Source: Escherichia phage humlepung
Strand: one strand, 5' to 3'
Sequence record: MN850564.1
Length of the DNA: 64,000 bases
This document shows positions 2,875 through 22,628 of this stretch, one piece after another. Within the stretch, counting starts at the first letter, position 1; every line of letters begins with the position of its first letter. Made by a program: the position numbers and the translations under genes. The notes under the pieces were generated by a model. It was not told the origin of the DNA. It searched no databases and was given only the letters and a program-made list of their open reading frames with translations.

Positions 2875-3416
2875 TCTTTCACCATAGCGTTTCTGAACTG
2901 GCGTTGTGTTTCTCTTGTAATTTCGTTTGGAGTAAACCCTGCTTTTAGCATATCTCTGAAAAGAACTTCTAAATGGTTCCTCTCAATGATGTAAATGGCA
3001 TTCTGAATAGCTGTTTTGCACTCCTTCAGGTCACTACTAATCTCTTCGCACTTACTGGTAAGCTCTGTGTCAACTTTCTTATAGACTGGCATAACATGTG
3101 CGTAGCAACCCTTATTAGCCTCCATGAAAAATTTAAAAGATTCTTCAGAGTCCTTTAGAGCAATCCCTATAAAGTTTTTGTAAGCGCCTGTGAAAGATAA
3201 TGACTCAATCTCAGCAGTTGAGTATACAGTCCCTGCACACAGTCTTGCAGAAGTACTAAATGTGTGGTTTGGTGTTGTGTCAAAGTCTAAGTTCTTCAGT
3301 GGTCGGAAATAAACTGTACCGTTGTGTGAGATGTGTGTTACAACAGCCTCAACACTCTTTGAAGGATTCTGTTTAACATACAAAATGATTTTATCGTGTT
3401 CTTTCACTTTAGCCAT
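2871..3416 (-). CDS. hypothetical protein (181 aa)
   Basis: ORF in operon. Confidence 0.5.
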   Translation of the reverse strand: MAKVKEHDKIILYVKQNPSKSVEAVVTHISHNGTVYFRPLKNLDFDTTPNHTFSTSARLCAGTVYSTAEIESLSFTGAYKNFIGIALKDSEESFKFFMEANKGCYAHVMPVYKKVDTELTSKCEEISSDLKECKTAIQNAIYIIERNHLEVLFRDMLKAGFTPNEITRETQRQFRNAMVKE

Positions 3417-3488
3417 ATCTACTCTCCAGAAACTAAAAAGGGAACTACCTCTCGATAGCTCCCATCATAATCAATATTATATACTCGG

Positions 3489-4070
3489 TCAAGAGTATTT
3501 TTTAGGCAGCAATGCACTGCGCTTGTTACTCTCTTCACTCAATAGTGCAATGAAGTCATCACTTTTACCTTTCCACGGGCTGAATGAAGGGATATGTTCA
3601 CGGATAGCCTCGATAACCGTCTTAAGTGCCGTGTTCTTCATCCACCAATCAGAATCTGCTGATGCCACCACGTAGTATCCACCGTCATCAGTTAAAATTG
3701 GCTCTGAAATACATGGTGAAATCAAAGTGGTGATGATTGAACCGTTGTTCATGTAATATGTGCGCTTCATAACCTTTTCAAGAAGCTTGTGAAGGTCACC
3801 AAACAGTGTTACTAGTTCTTTGTGGTCAATATCTTTTTCGAGGTTTGCTCGATACTTCAATAGTGCAGCATCAACCTCTCTGTCATTGAACTTGAAATAT
3901 TGAACCTCTTCAACAAGGCAAACACTGATATTGTTGACATTCATAGTCAACTTGCAAACTTTTACAGGAGAGTTGATATTTGGTTGAAAAAGTGCAATAC
4001 AACCTTCAATATTTCCAAAATGTTGGACTAATGTTACTTGTGGAGTAATATTCTGTTGCTCTTCGGACAT
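3489..4070 (-). CDS. hypothetical protein (193 aa)
   Basis: ORF in operon. Confidence 0.5.
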   Translation of the reverse strand: MSEEQQNITPQVTLVQHFGNIEGCIALFQPNINSPVKVCKLTMNVNNISVCLVEEVQYFKFNDREVDAALLKYRANLEKDIDHKELVTLFGDLHKLLEKVMKRTYYMNNGSIITTLISPCISEPILTDDGGYYVVASADSDWWMKNTALKTVIEAIREHIPSFSPWKGKSDDFIALLSEESNKRSALLPKKYS

Positions 4071-5489: not shown

Positions 5490-5540
5490 AGTTTTCTCCT
5501 TAGAAAATAAAAAAGGCTCCCGAAGGAGCCTATGAAGATA

Positions 5541-6005
5541 TTACTTTGGATATACACTGTCAAGATAAATGTCAGCTTCCATTCTACGTCTGTTTTTCAG
5601 TCCGTTTGAAGTGACCTTCTGACCTTTGACTGTAACCTTGTTCCACCACTGCATAGCTTCTGCACAACCTACCTTATTACCAGCATTGTGGCGCTTGATA
5701 AATGTAGAATCCTGCATAGCTGTGATACCGATGTTGTATGTTTCACTTACAAGTGCATCGAACTCATTCTGAGAAGTTGGAACCTTGATGGCTTTGTTCA
5801 CTGCTGCAACGAACTTTTCAACATCTGCGAGAAGATACTGTTCAGCTTGTTCAGCAGTAATTTTCATACCCATCTTAACAGGTTTTCCGTCAATACGGAT
5901 TGTCCCATACCCAATTGTTGGGATTCCGGCAGAGTCTTCGTAAGCCTCTAACTTCAGACCTTCGAAGAACTTAATAGCATCTAAACCTTTTCTTGAGAGT
6001 TGCAT
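5541..6005 (-). CDS. endolysin, T4-type lysozyme (glycoside hydrolase family 24)
   Basis: N-terminal FEGLKLEAYEDSAGIPTIGYG with Glu-9-Asp-6-Thr spacing like T4 lysozyme E11/D20/T26. Confidence 0.85.
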   Translation of the reverse strand: MQLSRKGLDAIKFFEGLKLEAYEDSAGIPTIGYGTIRIDGKPVKMGMKITAEQAEQYLLADVEKFVAAVNKAIKVPTSQNEFDALVSETYNIGITAMQDSTFIKRHNAGNKVGCAEAMQWWNKVTVKGQKVTSNGLKNRRRMEADIYLDSVYPK

Positions 6006-6889
6006 TATGCCTCCCCTGCTGGGTTAACTGTAACTGTCGACGCATTAGATGTTACAGAGCCACCTGCGCCAGTCACTACACAGGTGTAGCTTCCTGCATC
6101 AGCAGTGGTTGCACCTTCTTTGGTGTAAGTTGCAGCAGTTGCGTCTGGGATGACTTCCTCACCTTTCTTCCACTGATAACCTGTCGCACCTGTTGCCACA
6201 ACATTCAGTGTTAAGGTCTCACCTTCAGTGATTTCTTGATTGGTTGGTTGCTGAGTGATTACCGGAAGTGCATTCACAGTAACTGTTGCTGCATCTGAGG
6301 TAACACTTGTTCCACCCTCTCCAGATACAACACAAGTGTATGAACCAGCGTCAGAAGGTGCTACTGACTGTTTTGTGTAAGTTGCAGAATTGGCACTAGG
6401 GATGTCCTCACCATCCTTCTTCCACTGATATCCAGTGGCGTTAGTTGCTAGAATGCTTAGAGTAAGTGTGCCACCCTCATTGACTGTTTGACCTGTCGGT
6501 TGCTGAGTAATTGCTGGTGGCTTAATAGCATCCTTCAACTTAGCATTCAACATTGAGAACGGCTTAACTCTTGCCAACCATTCACAGTAAATTGTGTCAA
6601 CATCTTTACCATTGATGATTGCATACTGCAAATCCATGAAGAAATCAGCAGTTCTCATCTGTGCACCAACACTGTAAAGCAATTCATCACTAAATGGAAC
6701 TTTGCAGTCTGGTTTGTAGTCAAACTTCTCAACTTCTGCAATATCAGCTTCAGGCCAATATGAACTATAGGTAAGTGGTAAAATAGCCTCTTGATATGTT
6801 CTAAAATCATACCTCTTACCAGCCTTTACATTTGCAATGAAACCCTTCACAAAATCTTTGAAGTCTGGGTAAGTCTTTGCTTTAATCAT
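6005..6889 (-). CDS. protein with two C-terminal tandem Ig-like domains
   Basis: Two ~90-aa repeats (TQQPT...GYQWKK...GSYTCVV) typical of Ig/I-set-like folds; N-terminal domain paralogous to 6886-7257. Confidence 0.55.
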   Translation of the reverse strand: MIKAKTYPDFKDFVKGFIANVKAGKRYDFRTYQEAILPLTYSSYWPEADIAEVEKFDYKPDCKVPFSDELLYSVGAQMRTADFFMDLQYAIINGKDVDTIYCEWLARVKPFSMLNAKLKDAIKPPAITQQPTGQTVNEGGTLTLSILATNATGYQWKKDGEDIPSANSATYTKQSVAPSDAGSYTCVVSGEGGTSVTSDAATVTVNALPVITQQPTNQEITEGETLTLNVVATGATGYQWKKGEEVIPDATAATYTKEGATTADAGSYTCVVTGAGGSVTSNASTVTVNPAGEA

Positions 6890-7257
6890 TTCTTTTTAGC
6901 CTCTAAATGTGCGTTTAGTCTAAAATAACCTTTGTGATGCGGAGATACATCACCAACAACAATACCTTTAACCTTATAGCCTTTACCAATTACATACTGG
7001 ATATCCATAAGGAATCTTCCAAGTCCAACAATATGGAACATTGGATATAATAGGTTCTCAGAATCTGGAATATTGATTTCAGGTTTGTAGGTACGCTGTT
7101 CGATTGTTGGTGTAATATCTTCTTCAGGCCATTTGCTGAGTCTCCATGTCAAAGGTGTTGGGATAACATCATTAAGGTTGTACCTTTCACCATTTTGCAC
7201 GGAATTGATATAGGATTGTAGGAAGCAATAAAAGTCTTTTGCACTCTTAGCTTTCAT
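6886..7257 (-). CDS. hypothetical protein, paralog of the N-terminal domain of the 6005-6889 product
   Basis: Shared motifs (KDF...Y..P..YKP...LLY...FLMDIQYVI.GK). Confidence 0.5.
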   Translation of the reverse strand: MKAKSAKDFYCFLQSYINSVQNGERYNLNDVIPTPLTWRLSKWPEEDITPTIEQRTYKPEINIPDSENLLYPMFHIVGLGRFLMDIQYVIGKGYKVKGIVVGDVSPHHKGYFRLNAHLEAKKK

Positions 7258-7280: not shown

Positions 7281-7296
7281 AGGGGCATCAGCCCCT
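7281..7296 (-). terminator. Hairpin AGGGGCatcaGCCCCT, possible terminator between minus-strand genes
   Basis: Perfect 6-bp GC stem with T-rich tract on minus strand. Confidence 0.35.
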
Positions 7297-7304
7297 ATTC
7301 ACAC

Positions 7305-7895
7305 TTAAGCTTTGGTCTTAAGTAGGTTCTTAAGTTTTTTAAGATTCATACTCTCATCAAACTTAAAACCAAATCCATTGACATAATCAATGAACTCGGA
7401 TTTCTTACTAAGTGACAATGCGTAACTCATATCAAAGTTCTTACTTGTTTCTGCGTCTGGACTAGAGTTCACATCAAATGAAATTTCTGTAGGCTCTTGC
7501 TTACTTTTTCTCATATTATCAACCAACAAACATGTATAGTTTGCTGGATAGAAGTTTACACTACCATCAACGTAGCTGTACTTATTATTATGGATAAGGT
7601 TGGAAAATACCTTAAGGAATGTTTCTGAGTCGTGGCAAACAAGTTTGAATTGGCTGCTCTCTCCAAGCGCAACTAATGAGTACGGACTTTCACTATCAAA
7701 GTCATAATTTAGATTCGATGCCGTCACTGTTACACGCATCAAGTTATTAGCAATAGTCTTCTGTTTAAAAGAATTTTGAACATAGTGAAGACCTCTATCA
7801 CACTGATTGACTAGCTCTTTAAGCAGGTCATTTGCATATGGCGAATTAATTGATACAGAGCCATCACTATTGTAATTAAAACTTACTGTTAACAT
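7305..7895 (-). CDS. hypothetical protein (196 aa)
   Basis: ORF. Confidence 0.5.
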   Translation of the reverse strand: MLTVSFNYNSDGSVSINSPYANDLLKELVNQCDRGLHYVQNSFKQKTIANNLMRVTVTASNLNYDFDSESPYSLVALGESSQFKLVCHDSETFLKVFSNLIHNNKYSYVDGSVNFYPANYTCLLVDNMRKSKQEPTEISFDVNSSPDAETSKNFDMSYALSLSKKSEFIDYVNGFGFKFDESMNLKKLKNLLKTKA

Positions 7896-8122: not shown

Positions 8123-8364
8123 AGATAATCCTCTTGTCTTCTGTAATTTTGAAAGAACAGGTACAGACCAATTTCAGAGGATGAATAGTAGAGTAACTCT
8201 ACCCTTTTTGATTCCTTACAGTGATTGGTATTTTTACCTTTCTTCGGGTTGTTTGATTTTCTCATTAAGTCTCCTTTGTAGAACAAGGCAGACCTACAGC
8301 TTTAAGTAAGATGGTACAGTAATCCATACAACAAGTCAAGAACTATTGCAAGTTAAAAAAGTTG

Positions 8365-8394
8365 TTGACAAAGTACTTGACAAGGTGTAGGCTT
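8365..8394 (+). promoter_or_regulatory. Conserved promoter/operator element TTGACAAAGTACTTGACAAGGTGT (copy 1), -35 TTGACA + 17 nt + TAGGCT
   Basis: Near-identical element at 48838-48861; both sit at minus-to-plus strand switch points. Confidence 0.55.
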
Positions 8395-8514
8395 ATAAAT
8401 ACTTAGAAGATAACTTAAAAGGTTCCTCTAAAAAGGCTATTTAAACAGATATCTTTCTGGATATCTATCTTTTATCTTAAAAGCCTTTTAAGAGGTCTTA
8501 TAAGAGGCATACCA

Positions 8515-8967: not shown

Positions 8968-10383
8968 ATGAGCGAATTATTTAAACATGCGCACCTTCAT
9001 GCAGGTCGAACTGAAAATGGTGCTGTAAACCATACTTCATCAATGTCTGCTCTTGTAGACTTTTACAAAGCTGCTGGTTCGAGCCGTAGCAATGTAGAAA
9101 TCTTACCAGACCTGTTCTACAAAGCTTTGCGTGAGGATGTTGATGTTGCAGTTCGTATTTTACTGCATATGCGAGATGTACGAGAAGGTATGGGTGAGCG
9201 TAAAGCTTTCCGAACTGTTTTACTTAAAGCAATTGAAGATAAGATTTTAGAACCTACACAGGTTCTTCGCATTATGGATAAGATTGCAGAACTTGGTCGT
9301 TTTGATGACTTCAAAATCTTCGTAGGTACTCGTTTTGAGACAGATGCCTTCAAACATTTAGAAGCAGCATTACTAGACCCTGCAACAGCAGGTTTGGCGG
9401 CTAAGTGGTTACCACGAGTCAAACCACGTCATAAGCAGTTTGTAAAACGTTTCTGCAAGTTTGCCAACTTGAGTGAGAAAGAGTACCGCACACTGTTGTC
9501 TGCACTATCTGATACAGTTGAGCAAAAAATCTCTGCTAATGAGTTTGGTAAGATTGACTACAGTAAGATTCCTTCACTTGCTGCTGCACGTTACCAAAAA
9601 CTGTTTAACCGTAAAGATGGAGAGCGTTACAAAGCTTACATCGAGTCCTTATCAAAAGGTGAGACTAAGATTAACGCTGGTGCTGTTTACCCATACGATG
9701 TGATTAAATCTGTCAAGTATGGTAATGCAGATGTTGCTAATGAGCAGTGGAAAGCACTACCAAACTGGATGGCAGAAGGTGAAAACATCTTGTGTATGTC
9801 TGATGTATCAAGTTCAATGTCTTGGGTGAATTTTGGCTCCATTACTGCTCTGGATATTGGTGTATCACTTGCCTTGTATGTAGCAGAACGCAATACAGGT
9901 TGCTTTAAGAATGAGTTAATGGTTTATTCAACAAACCCTCACTTCATCGAACTGAGTGGTGATTTACGAAACCGTCATCGTCAGGTGATGCGACACGTTG
10001 AATATGGCTCAACTAACTTACAAGCAGCTTTTGACCGCATTCTTGAAACAGGTAAAAGAAACAACTTGACTCAGAAAGATATGCCAAGTAAGCTTATCAT
10101 CTTCTCCGATATGGAGTTCAATCAGGTTGATGGAGCTAACGGTCGTACAAACTTTGAAGCAATTCAGAGTAAGTACAAAAAAGCTGGATATGAGATGCCA
10201 CAACTGGTATTCTGGTACTTAGCAAACCGTAATGGTACTTGCGAAGTATCTGTTAAGGATAACGGTGTAGCAATGGTATCAGGGTTCTCTCCAGCCACTT
10301 TAAAAGCTCTGCTTGGTGGTGAGAAGTTTGACCCAATCAGTGTAATGCTCAAAGCAGTAATGATTGACCGTTATATCTGGTAA
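8968..10383 (+). CDS. Ro60/TROVE-like protein with C-terminal von Willebrand factor A domain (DUF2828-like N-terminus by recollection)
   Basis: MIDAS-like DVSSSMS...T...IIFSDMEFN resembling Ro60 vWA (DVSASM / FTDCETN); N-terminal TENGA...S..ALVDFY motif. Confidence 0.6.
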   Translation: MSELFKHAHLHAGRTENGAVNHTSSMSALVDFYKAAGSSRSNVEILPDLFYKALREDVDVAVRILLHMRDVREGMGERKAFRTVLLKAIEDKILEPTQVLRIMDKIAELGRFDDFKIFVGTRFETDAFKHLEAALLDPATAGLAAKWLPRVKPRHKQFVKRFCKFANLSEKEYRTLLSALSDTVEQKISANEFGKIDYSKIPSLAAARYQKLFNRKDGERYKAYIESLSKGETKINAGAVYPYDVIKSVKYGNADVANEQWKALPNWMAEGENILCMSDVSSSMSWVNFGSITALDIGVSLALYVAERNTGCFKNELMVYSTNPHFIELSGDLRNRHRQVMRHVEYGSTNLQAAFDRILETGKRNNLTQKDMPSKLIIFSDMEFNQVDGANGRTNFEAIQSKYKKAGYEMPQLVFWYLANRNGTCEVSVKDNGVAMVSGFSPATLKALLGGEKFDPISVMLKAVMIDRYIW

Positions 10384-10548: not shown

Positions 10549-10625
10549 CTCTGTTTAGCTCAGCTTGGTAGAGCGTTCCGTTTGGGGCGGTAAGGCCGGA
10601 GGTTCAAGTCCTCCAACAGAGACCA
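10549..10625 (+). tRNA. tRNA-Pro (anticodon TGG)
   Basis: 7-bp acceptor ctctgtt/aacagag, D-arm gctc/gagc, T-loop TTCAAGT, encoded CCA. Confidence 0.75.
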
Positions 10626-10632
10626 AATTAAT

Positions 10633-10710
10633 GTTCCAGTAGACAAAATGGTAAAGTCACCACTCTTTCAAAGTGGATATTTGAGGGTTCAAATCCCTTC
10701 TGGAACGCCA
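10633..10710 (+). tRNA. tRNA-Glu (anticodon TTC)
   Basis: Acceptor gttccag/ctggaac, anticodon loop cTTTCaa, T-loop TTCAAAT, CCA. Confidence 0.7.
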
Positions 10711-10715
10711 GTTTT

Positions 10716-10791
10716 GACAGAAGACCAATTACAGCAAACTTAATCTTATTCATCTGAAGGTAAATCGGACAAAGAAGAGATTTGGTCTGGT
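10716..10791 (+). repeat. Structured repeat element copy a (5' GACAGAAGACCA ... 3' TGGTCTGGTC)
   Basis: Member of four-copy family with conserved CAGAAGACC...TACAGCAA...GGTCTGG and covarying flanks. Confidence 0.5.
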
Positions 10792-10801
10792 CATTAAGAA
10801 T

Positions 10802-10878
10802 TGCGGGTATAGAGAAAGGGCGTCTCACATGTCTCATTAGCATGGTATCGGCAGGTTCGACTCCTGCACCCGCCTCCA
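10802..10878 (+). tRNA. tRNA with CAT anticodon (Met or Ile2)
   Basis: Anticodon stem catgt/gcatg, loop cTCATta, T-loop TTCGACT, CCA; 1:72 mismatch. Confidence 0.6.
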
Positions 10879-10882
10879 ATTT

Positions 10883-10946
10883 TGCAGAAGACCGTATTCA
10901 GCAACAAAATACTTTTTGCGGATAAAAGAAAAAACACGGTCTGGCA
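10883..10946 (+). repeat. Structured repeat element copy b (5' TGCAGAAGACCGT ... 3' ACGGTCTGGCA)
   Basis: Same family; flank covariation tGC/GCa. Confidence 0.5.
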
Positions 10947-10955
10947 ATGTATTAA

Positions 10956-11029
10956 GGTTAGGAAGCACATAAGGTATGTGCGGTCGCCTGTTAAGCGAAT
11001 GGCACAGGGTTCGAATCCCTGACTAACCG
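10956..11029 (+). tRNA. tRNA-Asn (anticodon GTT)
   Basis: Anticodon loop ctGTTaa, T-arm caggg-TTCGAAT-ccctg, acceptor 6/7 paired; no encoded CCA. Confidence 0.65.
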
Positions 11030-11040
11030 CAAAATTAAAT

Positions 11041-11128
11041 GTGTCGTTATCCCGTAGATGGTAGCGGTGGGGACTGTAAATCCCTTGTCATTGAGACTCG
11101 GTAGGTTCGACTCCTACACGGCACACCA
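11041..11128 (+). tRNA. tRNA-Tyr (anticodon GTA), type II with long variable arm
   Basis: 85 nt, acceptor gtgtcgt/acggcac, loop ctGTAaa, T-loop TTCGACT, CCA. Confidence 0.7.
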
Positions 11129-11133
11129 ATAAA

Positions 11134-11210
11134 GGCTATGTAGTTTAACTGGAGAAAATACTCCCCTGTCACGGGAGATGATGTGAGTTCAAGTCTCATC
11201 GTAGCCGCCA
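11134..11210 (+). tRNA. tRNA-Asp (anticodon GTC)
   Basis: Acceptor ggctatg/cgtagcc, loop ctGTCac, T-loop TTCAAGT, CCA. Confidence 0.7.
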
Positions 11211-11237
11211 ATTTTGAGAGGGCTATTTAGCCCCTCC

Positions 11238-11272
11238 CTTAAAGAGTTCTTACGAGTATTCTTTAAGGGAGC
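11238..11272 (+). repeat. Hairpin CCCTTAAAG-(agTTCTTACGAGtatt)-CTTTAAGGG
   Basis: 9-bp perfect stem; loop motif TTCTTACGAG recurs at 14277-14286. Confidence 0.5.
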
Positions 11273-11348
11273 AGAAGACCAAATACAGCAAGAATGTATG
11301 AAATTTCAAGCCAATTTAATTTTGAAAATTTAAAACTTGGTCTGGCTC
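11269..11348 (+). repeat. Structured repeat element copy c (5' GAGCAGAAGACCAA ... 3' TTGGTCTGGCTC)
   Basis: Same family; flank covariation GAGC/GCTC. Confidence 0.5.
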
Positions 11349-11354
11349 AACAAA

Positions 11355-11493
11355 TTTACAGAAGGCCGTTTACAGCAAAACTTAAACAATCTATTTCTCC
11401 GGTAAAGAAAAGGCGAAGGTTCGATTCCTTCACTCGGCAGATGTCGAGTTGGTGTAATGGTAGCACTTAAGATGATAAACAACGGTCTGGTAA
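11355..11493 (+). ncRNA. Candidate structured ncRNA (element copy d): terminal stem TTACAGAAGGCCGTT/AACGGTCTGGTAA enclosing tRNA-like T-arm and D-arm hairpins
   Basis: Internal gaagg-TTCGATT-ccttc hairpin with T-loop consensus, acceptor-like hairpin, D-arm-like gtgtAATGGTAgcac; no complete tRNA fold. Confidence 0.3.
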
Positions 11494-11639
11494 TTACCTT
11501 TGTAGATAAGTTATTAAGCTTACTTGTGAGTATGCGACCACAAAGGGTGAATGGGTAAATTCTAGATTTAAACCCAAAAAGGCACATCGCTACAGACCTT
11601 AAGCAAGTCTGGGTAGCTTATCTACAAAGATAATTTAAT

Positions 11640-11715
11640 GGAAGTGTAGCAGAATGGTGATGCGGCAGACTTTTAATCTGACAGGCGATGGGTTCGAATC
11701 CCTCCACTTCTACCA
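11640..11715 (+). tRNA. tRNA-Lys (anticodon TTT)
   Basis: Acceptor ggaagtg/cacttct, loop cTTTTaa, T-loop TTCGAAT, CCA. Confidence 0.65.
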
Positions 11716-11719
11716 ATAT

Positions 11720-11796
11720 GGTTCAGTCGCAGATAAGGTAATGCAAGGGTCTCATAAGCCCTATGAATGTGGGTTCGATTCCCATCTGAACCTCCA
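11720..11796 (+). tRNA. tRNA with CAT anticodon (Met or Ile2), second copy
   Basis: Perfect acceptor ggttcag/ctgaacc, loop cTCATaa, T-arm gtggg-TTCGATT-cccat, CCA. Confidence 0.65.
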
Positions 11797-11797
11797 A

Positions 11798-11873
11798 GCT
11801 GGTATAGTTAAGAAGGTTATAACACTCCCCTGATAAGGGAACATCGGTGGTTCGATTCCACCTACCAGTACCA
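11798..11873 (+). tRNA. tRNA-Ile (anticodon GAT)
   Basis: Loop ctGATaa, T-arm ggtgg-TTCGATT-ccacc, CCA. Confidence 0.65.
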
Positions 11874-11888
11874 ATTTCAATAAAGTTG

Positions 11889-11917
11889 TTGACATTGAGA
11901 TGTGACTACTTTATAGT
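11889..11917 (+). promoter_or_regulatory. Sigma70-like promoter TTGACA-17-TATAGT inside the tRNA region
   Basis: Exact -35, 17-nt spacer, TATAGT -10. Confidence 0.55.
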
Positions 11918-12121
11918 AACCTTAGTTTTCGTTGCGTAGCGTCTATTTTGCAAATTTAAAATAAATGCAAACGACAATGTTTTTCTGGCAGTAGCTTGAT
12001 AGGCTAAACACCAGTGAGGTCTTCCAATCCCTCATCAAAGAATTTGGCGTACTCGCCCACGGTATGATTAATAAGGTGGGCATCTTTAAGGGCTTTCTAA
12101 GAGAGTCTTTAAAGATAATTA

Positions 12122-12203
12122 CGGGGCGTATCTCAGCGGTCTTCTAAACCGCCGTTAACCGAGTAAGTGGAGTATGCGGGTTCGAGTCCTGCCGCCTCGA
12201 CCA
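12122..12203 (+). tRNA. Atypical tRNA-like gene, anticodon stem-loop gcggt-cTTCTaa-accgc (TCT, Arg-like), no recognisable D-arm, 23-nt extra segment
   Basis: 7-bp acceptor cggggcg/cgcctcg, T-arm gcggg-TTCGAGT-cctgc, CCA; only 7 nt between acceptor and anticodon stem. Confidence 0.4.
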
Positions 12204-12346
12204 ATTTAGTTAGCAGATTACTTAGACGACCTTAGCGGGTCTTCCTGTAGGGAGGTGGTCTGTATCTCATGTTTTCCAGAACATGTAAATAATCTGAGAA
12301 GGGGCTTTACAGTGTTGAGATAATACGGTAAGCTTCGAATTATAGT

Positions 12347-12429
12347 ATGGGACGATATTAAGACTCTAAGGCATGAGCAACGGCTTCCAACACCGTTTCA
12401 AAGGGGTTCAACTCCTCCGTCCCATGCCA
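12347..12429 (+). tRNA. Atypical tRNA-like gene, anticodon loop compatible with CCA (Trp) closed by a C-A pair, or 9-nt loop
   Basis: Perfect acceptor atgggac/gtcccat plus CCA, T-loop TTCAACT; D-region irregular. Confidence 0.35.
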
Positions 12430-12442
12430 AAGTCTTATTAGG

Positions 12443-12530
12443 GGTAGGTAGCGGCTAATGGTAGCCAAACTGTCTTGAAAACAGTTGCCACTGTAGAGAT
12501 ACGGTGAGGGTTCGACTCCTTTACTTACCG
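12443..12530 (+). tRNA. tRNA-Ser (anticodon TGA), type II
   Basis: 88 nt, stem actgt/acagt with loop cTTGAaa, long variable arm, T-loop TTCGACT. Confidence 0.65.
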
Positions 12531-12787
12531 CCTAATAAGATTTAAAGCCAAGCTTCATTCGGATGTTGCTTTGGTATACCGCGTGTATTGTTGTACGCAC
12601 TGATAAAGCACCTAGTAGGTGTCACGGAGAAGAGATAATATCAAGCTCTCCAAAGGTTCTAGTCACCGGATTAAACAAGACTATGCAAAGACCTTTTTAG
12701 GTCTTTTTAGAGGGCTTCTAAGGTTATTACAGCTTGTTGTGGAACCTTGTTGCTTAGGTTCTTAGAAGTTCTCTAAAAAGATTTAAT

Positions 12788-12865
12788 GGGAGATTGACGG
12801 TAATTGGTAAACCTACCATCCTTAGAAGTTGGTGTTTGAGGGTTCGAATCCCTTGTCTCCTACCA
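12788..12865 (+). tRNA. tRNA with TAG anticodon (Leu-type anticodon but short, type-I length)
   Basis: Acceptor gggagat/gtctcct with G-U pairs, loop ctTAGaa, T-arm gaggg-TTCGAAT-ccctt, CCA. Confidence 0.5.
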
Positions 12866-12872
12866 AATTAAT

Positions 12873-12948
12873 GCAGGTGTAGCAAAATGGTTATGCGGCT
12901 GACTCTTAATCAGTAAGACGATGGGTTCAATTCCCTCCACCTGTACCA
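12873..12948 (+). tRNA. tRNA-Lys (anticodon CTT)
   Basis: Stem gctga/tcagt, loop ctCTTaa, T-loop TTCAATT, CCA. Confidence 0.55.
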
Positions 12949-12954
12949 GACATT

Positions 12955-13030
12955 GGGGTCATAGTTTATATGGTTAAAATTCGAGTTTTGCAAACTTGGG
13001 AACTGAGTTCAATTCTCAGTGACTCCACCA
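12955..13030 (+). tRNA. tRNA-Ala (anticodon TGC)
   Basis: G3:U70 wobble pair in acceptor (Ala identity element), loop ttTGCaa, T-arm ctgag-TTCAATT-ctcag, CCA. Confidence 0.75.
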
Positions 13031-13036
13031 ATTAGT

Positions 13037-13111
13037 GCATCCATAGTTTAAACGGGAAAATTACAGTCTTCCAAACTGAGGTTGAGGGTTCGATTCCCTC
13101 TGGATGCTCCA
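13037..13111 (+). tRNA. tRNA-Gly (anticodon TCC)
   Basis: Perfect acceptor gcatcca/tggatgc, loop ctTCCaa, T-arm gaggg-TTCGATT-ccctc, CCA. Confidence 0.7.
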
Positions 13112-13117
13112 AACAAT

Positions 13118-13194
13118 GCTGCTTTCGTATAATTGGCTATTACACATCCCTTGTAAGGATGGAAATGCAGGTTCGAGTCCTGTGAGCAGCACCA
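13118..13194 (+). tRNA. tRNA-Thr (anticodon TGT)
   Basis: Perfect anticodon stem catcc/ggatg, loop ctTGTaa, T-loop TTCGAGT, CCA. Confidence 0.75.
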
Positions 13195-13199
13195 ATTCA

Positions 13200-13283
13200 G
13201 AGGTCAAGTGAAAGACCGCTGGTGTCAACTGAAGACCGTAACAAATTCCACGGAGTTGAGTTAGCGGCACAACTTCAGACCTC
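13200..13283 (+). repeat. Stem element AGAGGTC...GACCTCT enclosing a GAAGACCGTAAC motif
   Basis: 7-bp terminal inverted repeat; internal CTGAAGACCGTAACAAA resembles the 5' arm of elements a-d. Confidence 0.4.
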
Positions 13284-13289
13284 TTTCAC

Positions 13290-13364
13290 ACTCGCTTAGT
13301 TTATATGGTAAAACACCACCCTTACAAGATGAAGAAAAAGGTTCAAGTCCTTTAGTGAGTACCA
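13290..13364 (+). tRNA. tRNA-Val (anticodon TAC), tentative isotype
   Basis: Acceptor actcgct/agtgagt, loop cTTACaa, perfect T-arm aaagg-TTCAAGT-ccttt, CCA; anticodon stem has mismatches. Confidence 0.55.
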
Positions 13365-13365
13365 T

Positions 13366-13443
13366 GTTCCAGTATCCCAATTGGCAGAGGATGCAAGCTC
13401 AAACCTTGTATTAGTGACGGTTCGAATCCGTCTTGGAACACCA
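13366..13443 (+). tRNA. tRNA with CAA anticodon (Leu-type anticodon, type-I length)
   Basis: Acceptor gttccag/ttggaac, stem gcaag/cttgt, loop ctCAAac, T-arm gacgg-TTCGAAT-ccgtc, CCA. Confidence 0.55.
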
Positions 13444-13462
13444 ATTTAAAGAGGCTATTTAG

Positions 13463-14020
13463 ATGAGATATTTGAAGTATGCTTCATGGATTTTCCTAGC
13501 TTTACTAGAGCCATTTGCAGCAACCCTAGCAGTCATCTTAGCACCTTTCGTAGTTCCATTCTACAGTGAGAAGAAAGGACACTTACCTTTCGGGTTCAGA
13601 TGGATGGAGACATATGACAACCCAATTGATGGTGATGAAGGTCACGTTAAAAGATGGGCTAATATTAGATGGATTGGTAAACTAGGTGTCTACATGCAAA
13701 GAGTTGGATGGCTCTGGAGAAACAAAGCTTATAACTTCTCTTACCATGTATTAGGAAGAGATGTAAAAGATGTTACTAAGTGGAAAGGTAATATCAACGT
13801 AAGTTCTAACCCTGAAGATAATCAGACTGGTTATCTCCTAATGTGGAACAGGAATGCTTGGGGATTATTCGCTTTTATCCCATCAATTAAAATCTTTGGT
13901 AAACAATTTTACTGGAGAATTTATATTGGATGGAAACTAAAAAGTGTTGTCCCAGAAGAAAGAGCATTCTCAAGGGAAAGAGTTATGTTGGCATTCTTTA
14001 TTCATCCACTGAGAAAGTAA
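13463..14020 (+). CDS. hypothetical membrane protein (185 aa, Trp-rich) encoded inside the tRNA array
   Basis: ATG with AAAGAGG RBS; N-terminal hydrophobic segment. Confidence 0.55.
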   Translation: MRYLKYASWIFLALLEPFAATLAVILAPFVVPFYSEKKGHLPFGFRWMETYDNPIDGDEGHVKRWANIRWIGKLGVYMQRVGWLWRNKAYNFSYHVLGRDVKDVTKWKGNINVSSNPEDNQTGYLLMWNRNAWGLFAFIPSIKIFGKQFYWRIYIGWKLKSVVPEERAFSRERVMLAFFIHPLRK

Positions 14021-14028
14021 AGATTTAA

Positions 14029-14104
14029 AGGGGATTAGTTTACAAGGTTAAAACCTCGGTCTTTGAAATCGAAGAAGTTGGTTCAATTCCAACATCCCCC
14101 GCCA
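14029..14104 (+). tRNA. tRNA-Gln (anticodon TTG)
   Basis: Loop ctTTGaa, perfect T-arm gttgg-TTCAATT-ccaac, CCA; 1:72 mismatch. Confidence 0.6.
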
Positions 14105-14106
14105 AT

Positions 14107-14185
14107 GCTCCATTACTCCAATTGGCAGAGAGGCCAGACTTAAAATCTGTGTTATGTATCGGTTCGAATCCGATATGGAGTACCA
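14107..14185 (+). tRNA. tRNA with TAA anticodon (Leu-type anticodon, type-I length)
   Basis: Loop cTTAAaa, T-arm atcgg-TTCGAAT-ccgat, CCA; D-arm resembles the CAA tRNA. Confidence 0.5.
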
Positions 14186-14190
14186 AATTT

Positions 14191-14266
14191 AGCGGTATAG
14201 CATAACTGGCAATGCAGCAGTCTCTGAAGCTGTCTTATTAAGGTTCAAATCCTTATGCCGCTGCCA
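14191..14266 (+). tRNA. tRNA-Gln (anticodon CTG), tentative
   Basis: Acceptor agcggta/tgccgct, D-stem gcat/atgc, loop ctCTGaa, T-arm taagg-TTCAAAT-cctta, CCA. Confidence 0.55.
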
Positions 14267-14267
14267 C

Positions 14268-14294
14268 TTCTAAGGATTCTTACGAGAGTCCTTA
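14268..14294 (+). repeat. Hairpin with loop motif TTCTTACGAG (second copy)
   Basis: aaggaTTCTTACGAGagtcctt; motif shared with 11250-11259. Confidence 0.45.
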
Positions 14295-14297
14295 AAT

Positions 14298-14373
14298 GTG
14301 GCCTTATCATAAATGGTAATGACCCATGCTGTGAACATGGTCTATACGGGTTCAAATCCCGTAGGTCACCCCA
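14298..14373 (+). tRNA. tRNA-His (anticodon GTG)
   Basis: Perfect anticodon stem ccatg/catgg, loop ctGTGaa, T-arm acggg-TTCAAAT-cccgt, CCA. Confidence 0.7.
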
Positions 14374-14379
14374 ATTTAT

Positions 14380-14455
14380 AGTCCAAGTAGCTTATATGGT
14401 TAAAGCGCGTGTCTGAAAAACATGAGAAGAGGGTTCAAATCCCACTGGACTACCA
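14380..14455 (+). tRNA. tRNA-Phe (anticodon GAA)
   Basis: D-stem gctt/aagc, loop ctGAAaa, T-loop TTCAAAT, CCA; acceptor register uncertain by 1 nt. Confidence 0.6.
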
Positions 14456-14471
14456 ATTTCAAAGGTGCTTA

Positions 14472-15206
14472 ATGAAAGAGATGACAGAACAAGGTAAGGA
14501 GATTTTTAATCTCTTAAAAACCGGTAAAGGGTTTTCTAACCCACTTATTACTGGTGCAGCAGTTCTCGGTGGAACCGTAGCTGCCTCTACATCACTTGTA
14601 AGCTCTATTAGCTCTGTAACAGACCCTACAATGAAGGAGAAGCTTGTTGCTGCTGGACTTACAACAGTCCTTCTAAACAGCTTTACAACAATCCTGACAA
14701 GCACTACAGCAACCACTAAGACCCTAACAGACTACGGTCAAAAGTCTATTGATGAGTTTTCATCACGTATGCAGGTAGCAAAGGGATATTCCAATGTTAT
14801 GGGTGCAGCAGGAGAACAAGTTGGTTGTACACCATTCAGTGGTATTATGGGTGTTGCTACAGAGTATGGTCAAAAAGCTATTGACATGATTAACAGTACA
14901 CTAGATAGTGTTAATGGTGTGTTAAGTGACTTACAAGACGCTATTGATGAGGGTCTTGATACTGTTTCTGATTTAGCTAATCAGGCTGTTAGTAAGATTA
15001 ATGAAGGTATTTCAAAGATTACAGCTTATGCAGATGAAGTTGTGCAGATGATTGAAGAAGAAGCTGCCCTTATTGCAGAGTACCTTAAAACGAATATCAA
15101 TGGGTTCTTAGCAGGTATCTTACCAGACTGGTTTGATGATGCTTGTAAAACTGGTGTAATTGATGCTATTGCAACACCAGAAATGAAGAACGCATTACAG
15201 AAATAA
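14472..15206 (+). CDS. hypothetical protein (244 aa, Ala/Thr/Ser-rich)
   Basis: ATG at 14472 with AAAGG RBS; the track start at 14409 would overlap tRNA-Phe. Confidence 0.5.
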   Translation: MKEMTEQGKEIFNLLKTGKGFSNPLITGAAVLGGTVAASTSLVSSISSVTDPTMKEKLVAAGLTTVLLNSFTTILTSTTATTKTLTDYGQKSIDEFSSRMQVAKGYSNVMGAAGEQVGCTPFSGIMGVATEYGQKAIDMINSTLDSVNGVLSDLQDAIDEGLDTVSDLANQAVSKINEGISKITAYADEVVQMIEEEAALIAEYLKTNINGFLAGILPDWFDDACKTGVIDAIATPEMKNALQK

Positions 15207-15207
15207 T

Positions 15208-15300
15208 GGAAGATTAACCCTAAAAGGTAAGGGAGCAGTTTGCTAAACTGCCAGTAGCTGAGAAATCGGTGTACCAGTTCAAGTCTGGTATCTTCCTCCA
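15208..15300 (+). tRNA. tRNA-Ser (anticodon GCT), type II
   Basis: Perfect acceptor ggaagat/atcttcc, stem gcagt/actgc, loop ttGCTaa, long variable arm, CCA. Confidence 0.7.
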
Positions 15301-15304
15301 ATTT

Positions 15305-15380
15305 GAATCCGTGACAGAAATGGCTATGTGCCTGTCTGCAAAACAGGTTTATAAGGGTTCGAGTCCCTTCGGATTCTCCA
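15305..15380 (+). tRNA. tRNA-Cys (anticodon GCA)
   Basis: Perfect acceptor gaatccg/cggattc, stem cctgt/acagg, loop ctGCAaa, T-arm aaggg-TTCGAGT-ccctt, CCA. Confidence 0.75.
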
Positions 15381-21521: not shown

Positions 21522-22628
21522 ATGTTGACTAATTCTGAAAAAAGCAGATTTTTCCTTGCTGACCTGACTGGTGAAGTCCAGTCTATCCCTAATACTTATG
21601 GGTATATTTCCAACTTAGGTCTGTTCCGTTCAGCACCAATCACCCAAACTACTTTCCTTATGGACTTGACTGATTGGGATGTTAGCTTGCTTGATGCGGT
21701 AGACCGTGATAGCCGTAAAGCAGAGACTAGCGCACCTGAGCGTGTTCGTCAAATCAGCTTCCCAATGATGTACTTCAAAGAAGTTGAAAGCATCACTCCT
21801 GATGAAATTCAGGGTGTACGTCAGCCAGGCACTGCAAACGAACTGACTACTGAAGCTGTAGTACGTGCTAAGAAGCTGATGAAGATTCGTACCAAGTTCG
21901 ATATTACTCGTGAGTTCCTGTTTATGCAAGCTCTGAAGGGTAAAGTTGTTGATGCTCGTGGTACTCTGTACGCTGACCTGTACAAGCAGTTCGACGTTGA
22001 GAAGAAGACTGTTTACTTCGACCTTGACAACCCTAATGCTGACATTGACGCTTCTATTGAAGAACTGCGTATGCACATGGAAGACGAAGCTAAGACTGGC
22101 ACTGTAATCAACGGTGAAGAAATTCACGTAGTTGTTGACCGTGTATTCTTCAGCAAACTGGTTAAGCATCCTAAGATTCGTGACGCTTATCTTGCACAGC
22201 AGACCCCACTGGCTTGGCAACAGATTACTGGTTCTCTGAGAACTGGTGGTACTGACGGCGTTCAGGCTCATATGAACACCTTCTACTACGGTGGTGTTAA
22301 GTTTGTCCAGTACAACGGTAAGTTCAAAGACAAGCGTGGTAAGGTTCACACTCTGGTTAGCATTGACAGCGTAGCAGACACTGTTGGTGTTGGTCATGCT
22401 TTCCCTAACGTAGCTATGCTGGGTGAAGCTAACAACATCTTCGAAGTTGCATATGGTCCATGTCCTAAGATGGGTTACGCAAATACACTTGGTCAGGAAC
22501 TGTATGTATTCGAATACGAAAAAGACCGTGACGAAGGTATTGACTTCGAAGCTCACTCTTACATGCTGCCATACTGTACTCGTCCTCAGTTGCTGGTAGA
22601 TGTTCGCGCTGATGCTGAAGACAAATAA
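21522..22628 (+). CDS. major capsid protein (putative)
   Basis: 368 aa, strongly biased codon usage (CTG, CGT, GGT), position after protease/scaffold. Confidence 0.65.
   Translation: MLTNSEKSRFFLADLTGEVQSIPNTYGYISNLGLFRSAPITQTTFLMDLTDWDVSLLDAVDRDSRKAETSAPERVRQISFPMMYFKEVESITPDEIQGVRQPGTANELTTEAVVRAKKLMKIRTKFDITREFLFMQALKGKVVDARGTLYADLYKQFDVEKKTVYFDLDNPNADIDASIEELRMHMEDEAKTGTVINGEEIHVVVDRVFFSKLVKHPKIRDAYLAQQTPLAWQQITGSLRTGGTDGVQAHMNTFYYGGVKFVQYNGKFKDKRGKVHTLVSIDSVADTVGVGHAFPNVAMLGEANNIFEVAYGPCPKMGYANTLGQELYVFEYEKDRDEGIDFEAHSYMLPYCTRPQLLVDVRADAEDK

Follow-up and report, generated by a model that had tools for sequence, protein, structure and literature searches.

The closest described systems are the capsid decoration proteins of phages Bas63 and Sf14. 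[quoted passage not shown] Flexible Ig-like domains follow the CapBD, four of them in Bas63 and one to three in other felixounaviruses (PMC12609058). [quoted passage not shown] The Felix O1 ortholog, gp36 (31.6 kDa, "tail protein"), is abundant in virions with 44% coverage, and the Bas63 paper states that the "tail protein" label found in most genomes is wrong (PMC12609058).

Where and when these proteins are made has also been described. In Bas63, more than 10 kb separate the Hex-Dec gene from the structural module (PMC12609058), and the distance of this structural gene from the morphogenesis module was already remarked on in the Felix O1 genome paper and again for Bas63 (PMC12609058). In Felix O1, reverse transcription-PCR (RT-PCR) placed genes 36 and 37 in the late class (60 min), with the structural genes, and the lysin (gene 35) and gene 38 in the middle class; the timing is coarse, and the lysin fell in the middle class though it is seemingly cotranscribed. 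Moreover, in PhageMaP, Bas63 gp124, an Ig-domain protein aligning to Robo2, proved important specifically on host S17-1. Outside phages, Robo2 is likewise the top PDB match of the Hex-Dec protein described below, and because it matches both that protein and the Ig domains of gp124, gp124 probably is Hex-Dec.

The locus and its setting

We analyzed a 64,000-nucleotide stretch of Escherichia phage humlepung (MN850564.1), here called the window. The region is that of a Felixounavirus. Its identity to Escherichia phage bumzen is 98.7%, and with about 200 genomes of Felixounavirus it exceeds 90%. The window also has a typical cluster of 24 tRNA genes. The features discussed here are the following.

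5514..5531, minus strand: hairpin and T-run resembling an intrinsic terminator, downstream of the lysozyme gene (AGGCTCCTTCGGGAGCCT TTTTTATTTT)
5541..6005, minus strand: GH24 endolysin (T4-lysozyme family), 154 amino acids; PF00959, E 9e-41; phrog_7 endolysin; Felix O1 gp35
6005..6889, minus strand: Hex-Dec, 294 amino acids; ortholog, by sequence, of Bas63 Hex-Dec, Sf14 gp20, and Felix O1 gp36
6014..6268, minus strand: Ig-like repeat 2 of Hex-Dec, residues 208 to 292; Pfam Ig_2/I-set stretch 209 to 288
6269..6520, minus strand: Ig-like repeat 1 of Hex-Dec, residues 124 to 207; Pfam Ig_3/I-set stretch 124 to 189; near-identical to Bas63 Ig1
6521..6889, minus strand: CapBD of Hex-Dec, residues 1 to 123, with Arg79 and Arg107; near-identical to the modeled part of 9ncf_S and 9c2d_S
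6886..7257, minus strand: Ig-less CapBD paralog, 123 amino acids; from the open reading frame (ORF) list and BLASTP to Hex-Dec
7282..7295, minus strand: GC hairpin GGGGCTGATGCCCC between the 196-amino-acid gene and the short paralog, read from the sequence
21522..22628, plus strand: MCP, binding partner of Hex-Dec; phmmer to 9ncf_A, E 2e-247, and to 9c2d_A, E 6e-235

The three genes from the short paralog to the lysozyme gene leave no space between them. The stop codon of the short gene overlaps the start codon of Hex-Dec (ATGA), the stop codon of Hex-Dec overlaps the start codon of the lysozyme gene (TAATG), and the Hex-Dec gene, directly upstream of the lysozyme gene, is 14.6 kb from the MCP gene and outside the structural module. 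The last gene of the unit is the endolysin that the initial annotation had seen beside the pair. The hairpin that follows is labeled a terminator in the annotation of phage Barry, and the GC hairpin at 7282 to 7295, which is also kept in phages REP9 and Z31, is a possible upstream boundary of the three-gene unit. Upstream of that hairpin, the 196-amino-acid gene has no Pfam, NCBIfam, or PADLOC match, and the AlphaFold2 (AF2) model of its product, with a pLDDT of 45.5, is too poor to be of use. At the junction of the short gene and Hex-Dec, we considered a programmed -1 frameshift that would fuse the two products, as Hex-Dec lies in the -1 frame behind an AAAAAG run (GCT AAA AAG AAA TGA). The heptamer is imperfect, however, and the arrangement is not conserved, with Hex-Dec in the +1 frame in EP1 and the Lys run missing in Sf14, EP1, and the 87-kb metagenomic phage L013. 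Plain translational coupling is enough for this junction.

The order of genes is conserved. A 196-amino-acid gene, one or two CapBD genes, and a lysozyme gene follow each other in more than 250 genomes of Ounavirinae as well as in distant relatives from metagenomes, and the full arrangement of 196-amino-acid gene, short paralog, Hex-Dec, and lysozyme is common to Felix O1, EC6, Pr103Blw, Sf14, Moogle, KMM4, and EP1. The same four genes occur in L013, with proteins that are only 45 to 63% identical. In the more distant contigs L015, L018, and L020, a single CapBD gene lies between the homolog of the 196-amino-acid gene and the lysozyme gene, and its product has no I-set repeats but Big_2-type or other Ig-like domains, or no more than a Lys-rich tail. 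The initial annotation had called the surroundings an early-looking block in which Ig-like domains would be unusual. That impression did not survive: because the order is conserved in more than 250 genomes, and because Felix O1 genes 36 and 37 belong to the late RT-PCR class, the location is not anomalous. The three genes are best explained as a tightly packed, late-expressed unit of a Felixounavirus.

The Ig-like protein

The 294-amino-acid protein matches the two solved decoration proteins over nearly its whole length. By phmmer against the PDB, residues 1 to 290 align to 9ncf_S, from the Bas63 capsid (E 1.5e-245), and to 9c2d_S, from the Sf14 capsid (E 7.8e-166). The protein falls in phrog_3995 (E 1e-168), and 251 phage records contain at least 80% of it. 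In the CapBD, its identity is about 95% to Bas63 and about 85% to Sf14, and as in both phages the N-terminal CapBD is followed by C-terminal I-set Ig repeats and the gene sits upstream of the lysozyme gene. Arg79 and Arg107 are both present and are invariant in eight long-form sequences. The partner is the same as well, as the window and Bas63 have essentially identical MCPs, and residue 221 of the window MCP is Asp. We conclude that the gene is, to judge by its sequence, an ortholog of the already known decoration proteins Hex-Dec and Sf14 gp20; its place in the virion would be that of the solved orthologs, which have near-identical partners.

The number of Ig-like domains differs: two in the window, four in Bas63, and three in Sf14. 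That Ig-like domains occur in the larger paralog only had been proposed by the initial annotation and was borne out by an HMM search with Pfam, which found two Ig stretches in the long protein (Ig_3, E 6e-22; Ig_2, E 1e-18; I-set, E 1e-15). The two repeats are 67% identical to each other (E 3e-36). The second is near-identical to Bas63 residues 375 to 458, the fourth and last Ig domain, and less like Bas63 Ig2. Because its repeats match Bas63 Ig1 and Ig4, the protein looks like a four-unit protein from which two internal units are missing. Long forms at the loci that we fetched measure 210 amino acids in EC6; 294 in the window, Felix O1, Moogle, EP1, and REP9; and 372 to 378 in Sf14, Pr103Blw, and EcF-vB. 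The best explanation is that Ig number varies by in-register gain and loss of internal repeats and that the first and last units were retained here. Tandem Repeats Finder (TRF) reported no DNA-level tandem repeat of the Ig units, because the units are too diverged in DNA.

The likeness to T4 Hoc, from which the initial annotation had argued, is apt, as the orthologs are Hoc-like capsid decoration proteins by cryo-electron microscopy (cryo-EM) in Bas63 and Sf14. Both Hoc and Hex-Dec are monomeric, nonessential decorations of hexamer centers that combine a small capsid-binding domain with a string of Ig-like domains, and a role in adhesion or aggregation has been proposed for both (PMC12609058, PMC11821841). 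The capsid-binding domain, however, is C-terminal in Hoc and N-terminal in Hex-Dec, and the CapBD of the Ounavirinae is larger, is pseudo-two-fold symmetric, and has another topology (PMC12609058). Hex-Dec also differs in occupying only a subset of the hexamers. No Hoc chain was matched by the CapBD in the PDB search, and PHROG "Hoc-like" matches cover only the Ig region, residues 120 to 292. Thus, Hex-Dec is an analogue of T4 Hoc and not a member of its family. [quoted passage not shown] The Ig parts are similar (8zvi_a and 5lxk_A, E ~2e-12), but the capsid-binding domain is unrelated and the similarity is confined to the Ig domain. By analogy with Hoc, the Ig fiber presumably serves adhesion or aggregation.

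An Ig fold is predicted in the protein and the orthologs have been seen by cryo-EM and by mass spectrometry of virions, the latter in Felix O1 and Sf14, so neither of the absences that would have spoken against the initial annotation, of the fold or of the protein from virions, is what was found. We note that earlier publications already cover the Ig protein and its fold, where it sits on the capsid, how its repeat number varies, the odd genomic position of its gene, and its misannotation.

The short paralog

The 123-amino-acid protein corresponds to Felix O1 ORF81/gp37, to Sf14 gp21, and to phrog_4463, a family without a functional label that it matches end to end (E 6e-80). The initial annotation had read the two ORFs as paralogous, and indeed, BLASTP aligns the short protein to the N-terminal ~120 amino acids of the long product (38% identity over 101 amino acids, E 5e-17). 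By phmmer, its residues 2 to 117 align to residues 3 to 117 of the two solved Hex-Dec orthologs (E 6e-12 and 2e-11); it has no Pfam match. The best AF2 model is of moderate confidence (pLDDT 70, pTM 0.71; the other four models are at ~50), and in the PDB it matches only 9c2d_S and 9ncf_S (TM 0.65, probability 1.00), with no other fold at E<1. By the model and by sequence, the short paralog keeps the CapBD fold. Among 1.84 billion representative proteins, a CapBD profile built from short and long forms found only 13 clusters, all of them phage-like and all with the domain at the N terminus. In the window itself, an HMM scan of all six frames across the 64 kb found no third CapBD homolog.

The duplication that gave rise to the two forms is old. 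In a neighbor-joining tree of CapBDs, made without bootstrap support, the short forms, that of L013 included, group in one clade and the long forms in another, and the single-copy relatives fall outside. Because each form is one clade and L013 has both, the duplication preceded the split from L013. Twenty-two positions are invariant in both clades and look like the core of the fold. Another 12 are fixed but different between the clades, among them position 79, which is Arg in the long forms and Gly in all short forms; the position of Arg107 is occupied in short forms by His, Gln, or Arg. A further 14 positions are invariant in the short clade only. Charge was considered as a clue, as the short protein of the window has a pI of 9.1 and the CapBD of Hex-Dec a pI of 5.5, but the difference is not general because the short orthologs of Sf14, Moogle, EP1, and L013 are acidic.

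The short gene is constrained and yet can be lost. Pairwise dN/dS was 0.13 to 0.14 for the short gene, 0.11 to 0.12 for lysozyme, 0.10 for the 196-amino-acid gene, and 0.05 to 0.07 for the CapBD of Hex-Dec. Thus, the short gene is under purifying selection that resembles that on the lysozyme and 196-amino-acid genes and is less strict than that on the Hex-Dec CapBD. An intact short ORF of 122 to 124 codons is found in 232 of 252 records and in the relative that is only 45% identical. In about 19 of the 252 phage records (~8%), the only match is the cross-match to Hex-Dec, and the short gene is missing. A remnant is left in REP9 and Z31: it has lost the start codon and, through an internal deletion, about 220 nucleotides, but still has the 3' end with the GAGG ribosome-binding site of Hex-Dec and the ATGA junction. 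EcF-vB yielded no intact short ORF. We conclude that the short gene is dispensable. Recognition of the phrog_4463 gene as a constrained, CapBD-only paralog is the only unpublished element that we found, and it is a modest lead.

Evidence on the presence of the short protein in virions is negative. Felix O1 gp37 is absent from a list of virion proteins that reaches down to 9.7 kDa. In phage VpaE1, whose virion list is inferred from the text of the paper, absence of the short paralog follows from that text, with only gp54, gp58, and gp68 found beyond the Felix O1 set. As far as the structural Table 1 of the Sf14 paper goes, gp20 is included and gp21 is not (PMC11821841). Such absence from mass spectrometry is negative evidence for a 14-kDa protein, not proof. 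The genomics paper on UAB_Phi87 contains no virion proteomics. Neither cryo-EM paper mentions the short paralog (PMC12609058, PMC11821841), nor did any further paper among those searched, the Sf14 supplement does not contain gp21, and no density on the other 20 hexamers was reported in the Bas63 and Sf14 reconstructions (PMC12609058, PMC11821841).

What the short protein may do

The explanation that we prefer, and consider likely as a whole, is a late unit made up of Hex-Dec, an ancient duplicate of its CapBD, and the endolysin, with a transient role of the short protein in assembly. The CapBD of Hex-Dec would sit as a monomer at the center of the 60 edge (peripentonal) hexamers of a T=9 head, with Arg79 and Arg107 anchored to MCP Asp221, and the two C-terminal Ig-like domains would stick outward as a Hoc-like fiber for weak surface adhesion or particle aggregation. 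The short gene would be an ancient duplicate of the CapBD alone, in which the fold was kept and the capsid-contact positions were changed. Its product would be made late, with Hex-Dec, would be dispensable and not a stable component of the virion, and might act transiently on capsid hexamers or on Hex-Dec while the head is assembled. Homology, fold, synteny, selection, and the loss events come from our results, and virion location and timing are taken from the literature on orthologs; the role of the Ig fiber and everything about the activity of the short protein we infer. Our best guess is that the short protein is an accessory, nonvirion head-assembly factor. Of the possible readings, a transient role in assembly ranks highest, followed by a task that has nothing to do with the capsid, then by a minor decoration that escaped detection, and last by a dead duplicate. 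That the short paralog is an unrecognized hexamer-binding factor in particular, either a transient ligand of the prohead or of the three-fold hexamers or a competitor that sets the placement or number of Hex-Dec, seems unlikely.

Alternatively, the short paralog may have gained a function unrelated to the capsid, such as binding a host or defense protein, so that the fold alone betrays its origin. The 12 fixed differences between the clades, which include the change of the capsid contact Arg79 to Gly, would fit such a change of task, as would a sequence that evolves faster than the CapBD of Hex-Dec yet stays constrained, loss from some lineages in the manner of many accessory host-interaction genes, and absence from virions. 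Position and coupling to Hex-Dec, however, are strictly kept across deep divergence, expression is late rather than early, and a search with defense and antidefense models gave no match for the short protein. We consider this alternative unlikely.

A place on the mature head is less probable still. The short paralog could be a minor, Ig-less decoration that occupies the 20 facet-center hexamers, or one that competes with Hex-Dec and so sets the number of fibers. Its fold is that of the CapBD, it is coexpressed late and translationally coupled with Hex-Dec, and Hex-Dec leaves 20 of the 80 hexamers empty. Moreover, an Ig-less CapBD can stand alone, because P0105, the single CapBD protein of L018, lacks Ig domains and ends in just a short Lys-rich tail; there, the Ig-less form is the sole form. 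Two independent cryo-EM studies nevertheless saw no density on the other hexamers, and the proteins detected in Felix O1 virions include some of 9.7 to 13 kDa but not gp37. The residues that hold Hex-Dec to the capsid also argue against stable decoration, with Gly for Arg79 in all short forms and His, Gln, or Arg at position 107, as does deletion of the gene in ~8% of genomes. Thus, we regard a minor decoration as improbable.

It is very improbable that the short gene is a duplicate in decay, without function and kept only for the Hex-Dec ribosome-binding site in its 3' end. Loss from REP9, Z31, and EcF-vB, with the GAGG site and the ATGA junction retained at the 3' end, is what such decay might look like, but dN/dS stays at 0.13 to 0.14 over dS values of up to ~1 to 2.5, 232 of 252 records and the 45%-identical relative have an intact ORF, and 14 positions are invariant in the short clade only. 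Finally, the reading that the 294-amino-acid Ig protein belongs to the tail or to lysis, which most GenBank records carry ("tail protein," "HK97 major tail subunit") and with which matches of the Ig part to PHROG major tail proteins with Ig domains would agree, is refuted, as the similarity is limited to the Ig repeats, the N-terminal domain of the orthologs lies on capsid hexamers in two phages (9ncf, 9c2d), and the Bas63 paper calls the annotation wrong (PMC12609058).

Implications

The label "tail protein" beside a Felix O1-type lysozyme gene is confirmed to be wrong, and the gene encodes a Hoc-like head decoration, here in a two-Ig form. For the short paralog, our preferred reading remains a transient, nonvirion role in head assembly. 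A short paralog that binds hexamers would, if true, help explain why 20 of the 80 hexamers carry no Hex-Dec. Should the short protein make contact with the capsid or with Hex-Dec, it would offer a simple genetic handle on decoration occupancy, and this would bear on phage display with Felix O1-type heads. Should it contact neither, a capsid-binding fold would have been recruited to another task.

The short paralog and Hex-Dec genes

How the Ig-less short paralog and the Hoc-like decoration protein Hex-Dec are joined at the level of translation was considered at the point where their genes meet.

6886-6900, minus strand, junction of short paralog and Hex-Dec, GCT AAA AAG AAA TGA

At this junction, an AAAAAG run precedes the Hex-Dec frame, which is set at -1. 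A shift into the -1 frame could in principle yield a CapBD-CapBD-Ig fusion, but the relative frame is not conserved, being +1 in phage EP1, which has the same gene order. Because the relative frame varies, we conclude that the junction is probably just translational coupling.

The slot directly upstream of the CapBD gene or genes is always filled by the same gene, even in three distant contigs with a single CapBD copy (L015, L018, and L020).

7305-7895, minus strand, 196-aa protein (phrog_4034)

Searches of Pfam, NCBIfam, and PADLOC returned no match to the 196-aa protein. Its AF2 model was poor (pLDDT, 45.5), except for the C-terminal ~40 aa, which were helical and confident.

Relatives

Shigella phage Z31 lacks the short paralog, and its Hex-Dec is annotated as two ORFs.

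Z31 2998-3570, Hex-Dec, 134-aa CapBD-only ORF plus 55-aa ORF

Either the protein is naturally truncated in this phage and has no Ig domains, or the split comes from a sequencing error. Among Felixounavirus matches in the phage database search was a "Staphylococcus phage SA1" record carrying both genes; this record probably either names the wrong host or stems from contamination. We note that a Gad1-family gene (PF25705, anti-Gabija) lies ~4 kb downstream of lysozyme in the distant metagenomic relative (L013, 11510-12369; L014, 8967-9826).

The divergent intergenic region

The leftward block, with the lysozyme unit at its end, and a rightward block of a DUF5681-like gene, a TROVE-like gene, and tRNAs flank a divergent region.

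8290-8514, intergenic, several sigma-70-like hexamer pairs
8968-10383, plus strand, 471-aa protein, orthologs annotated DUF2828/TROVE-like "RNA-binding protein"
10549-15380, plus strand, 24 tRNA genes

The tRNA cluster immediately follows the TROVE-like gene, the counterpart of which is broken into two ORFs in phage Barry. The 40/41 divergence of the intergenic region was called puzzling in the Felix O1 paper.
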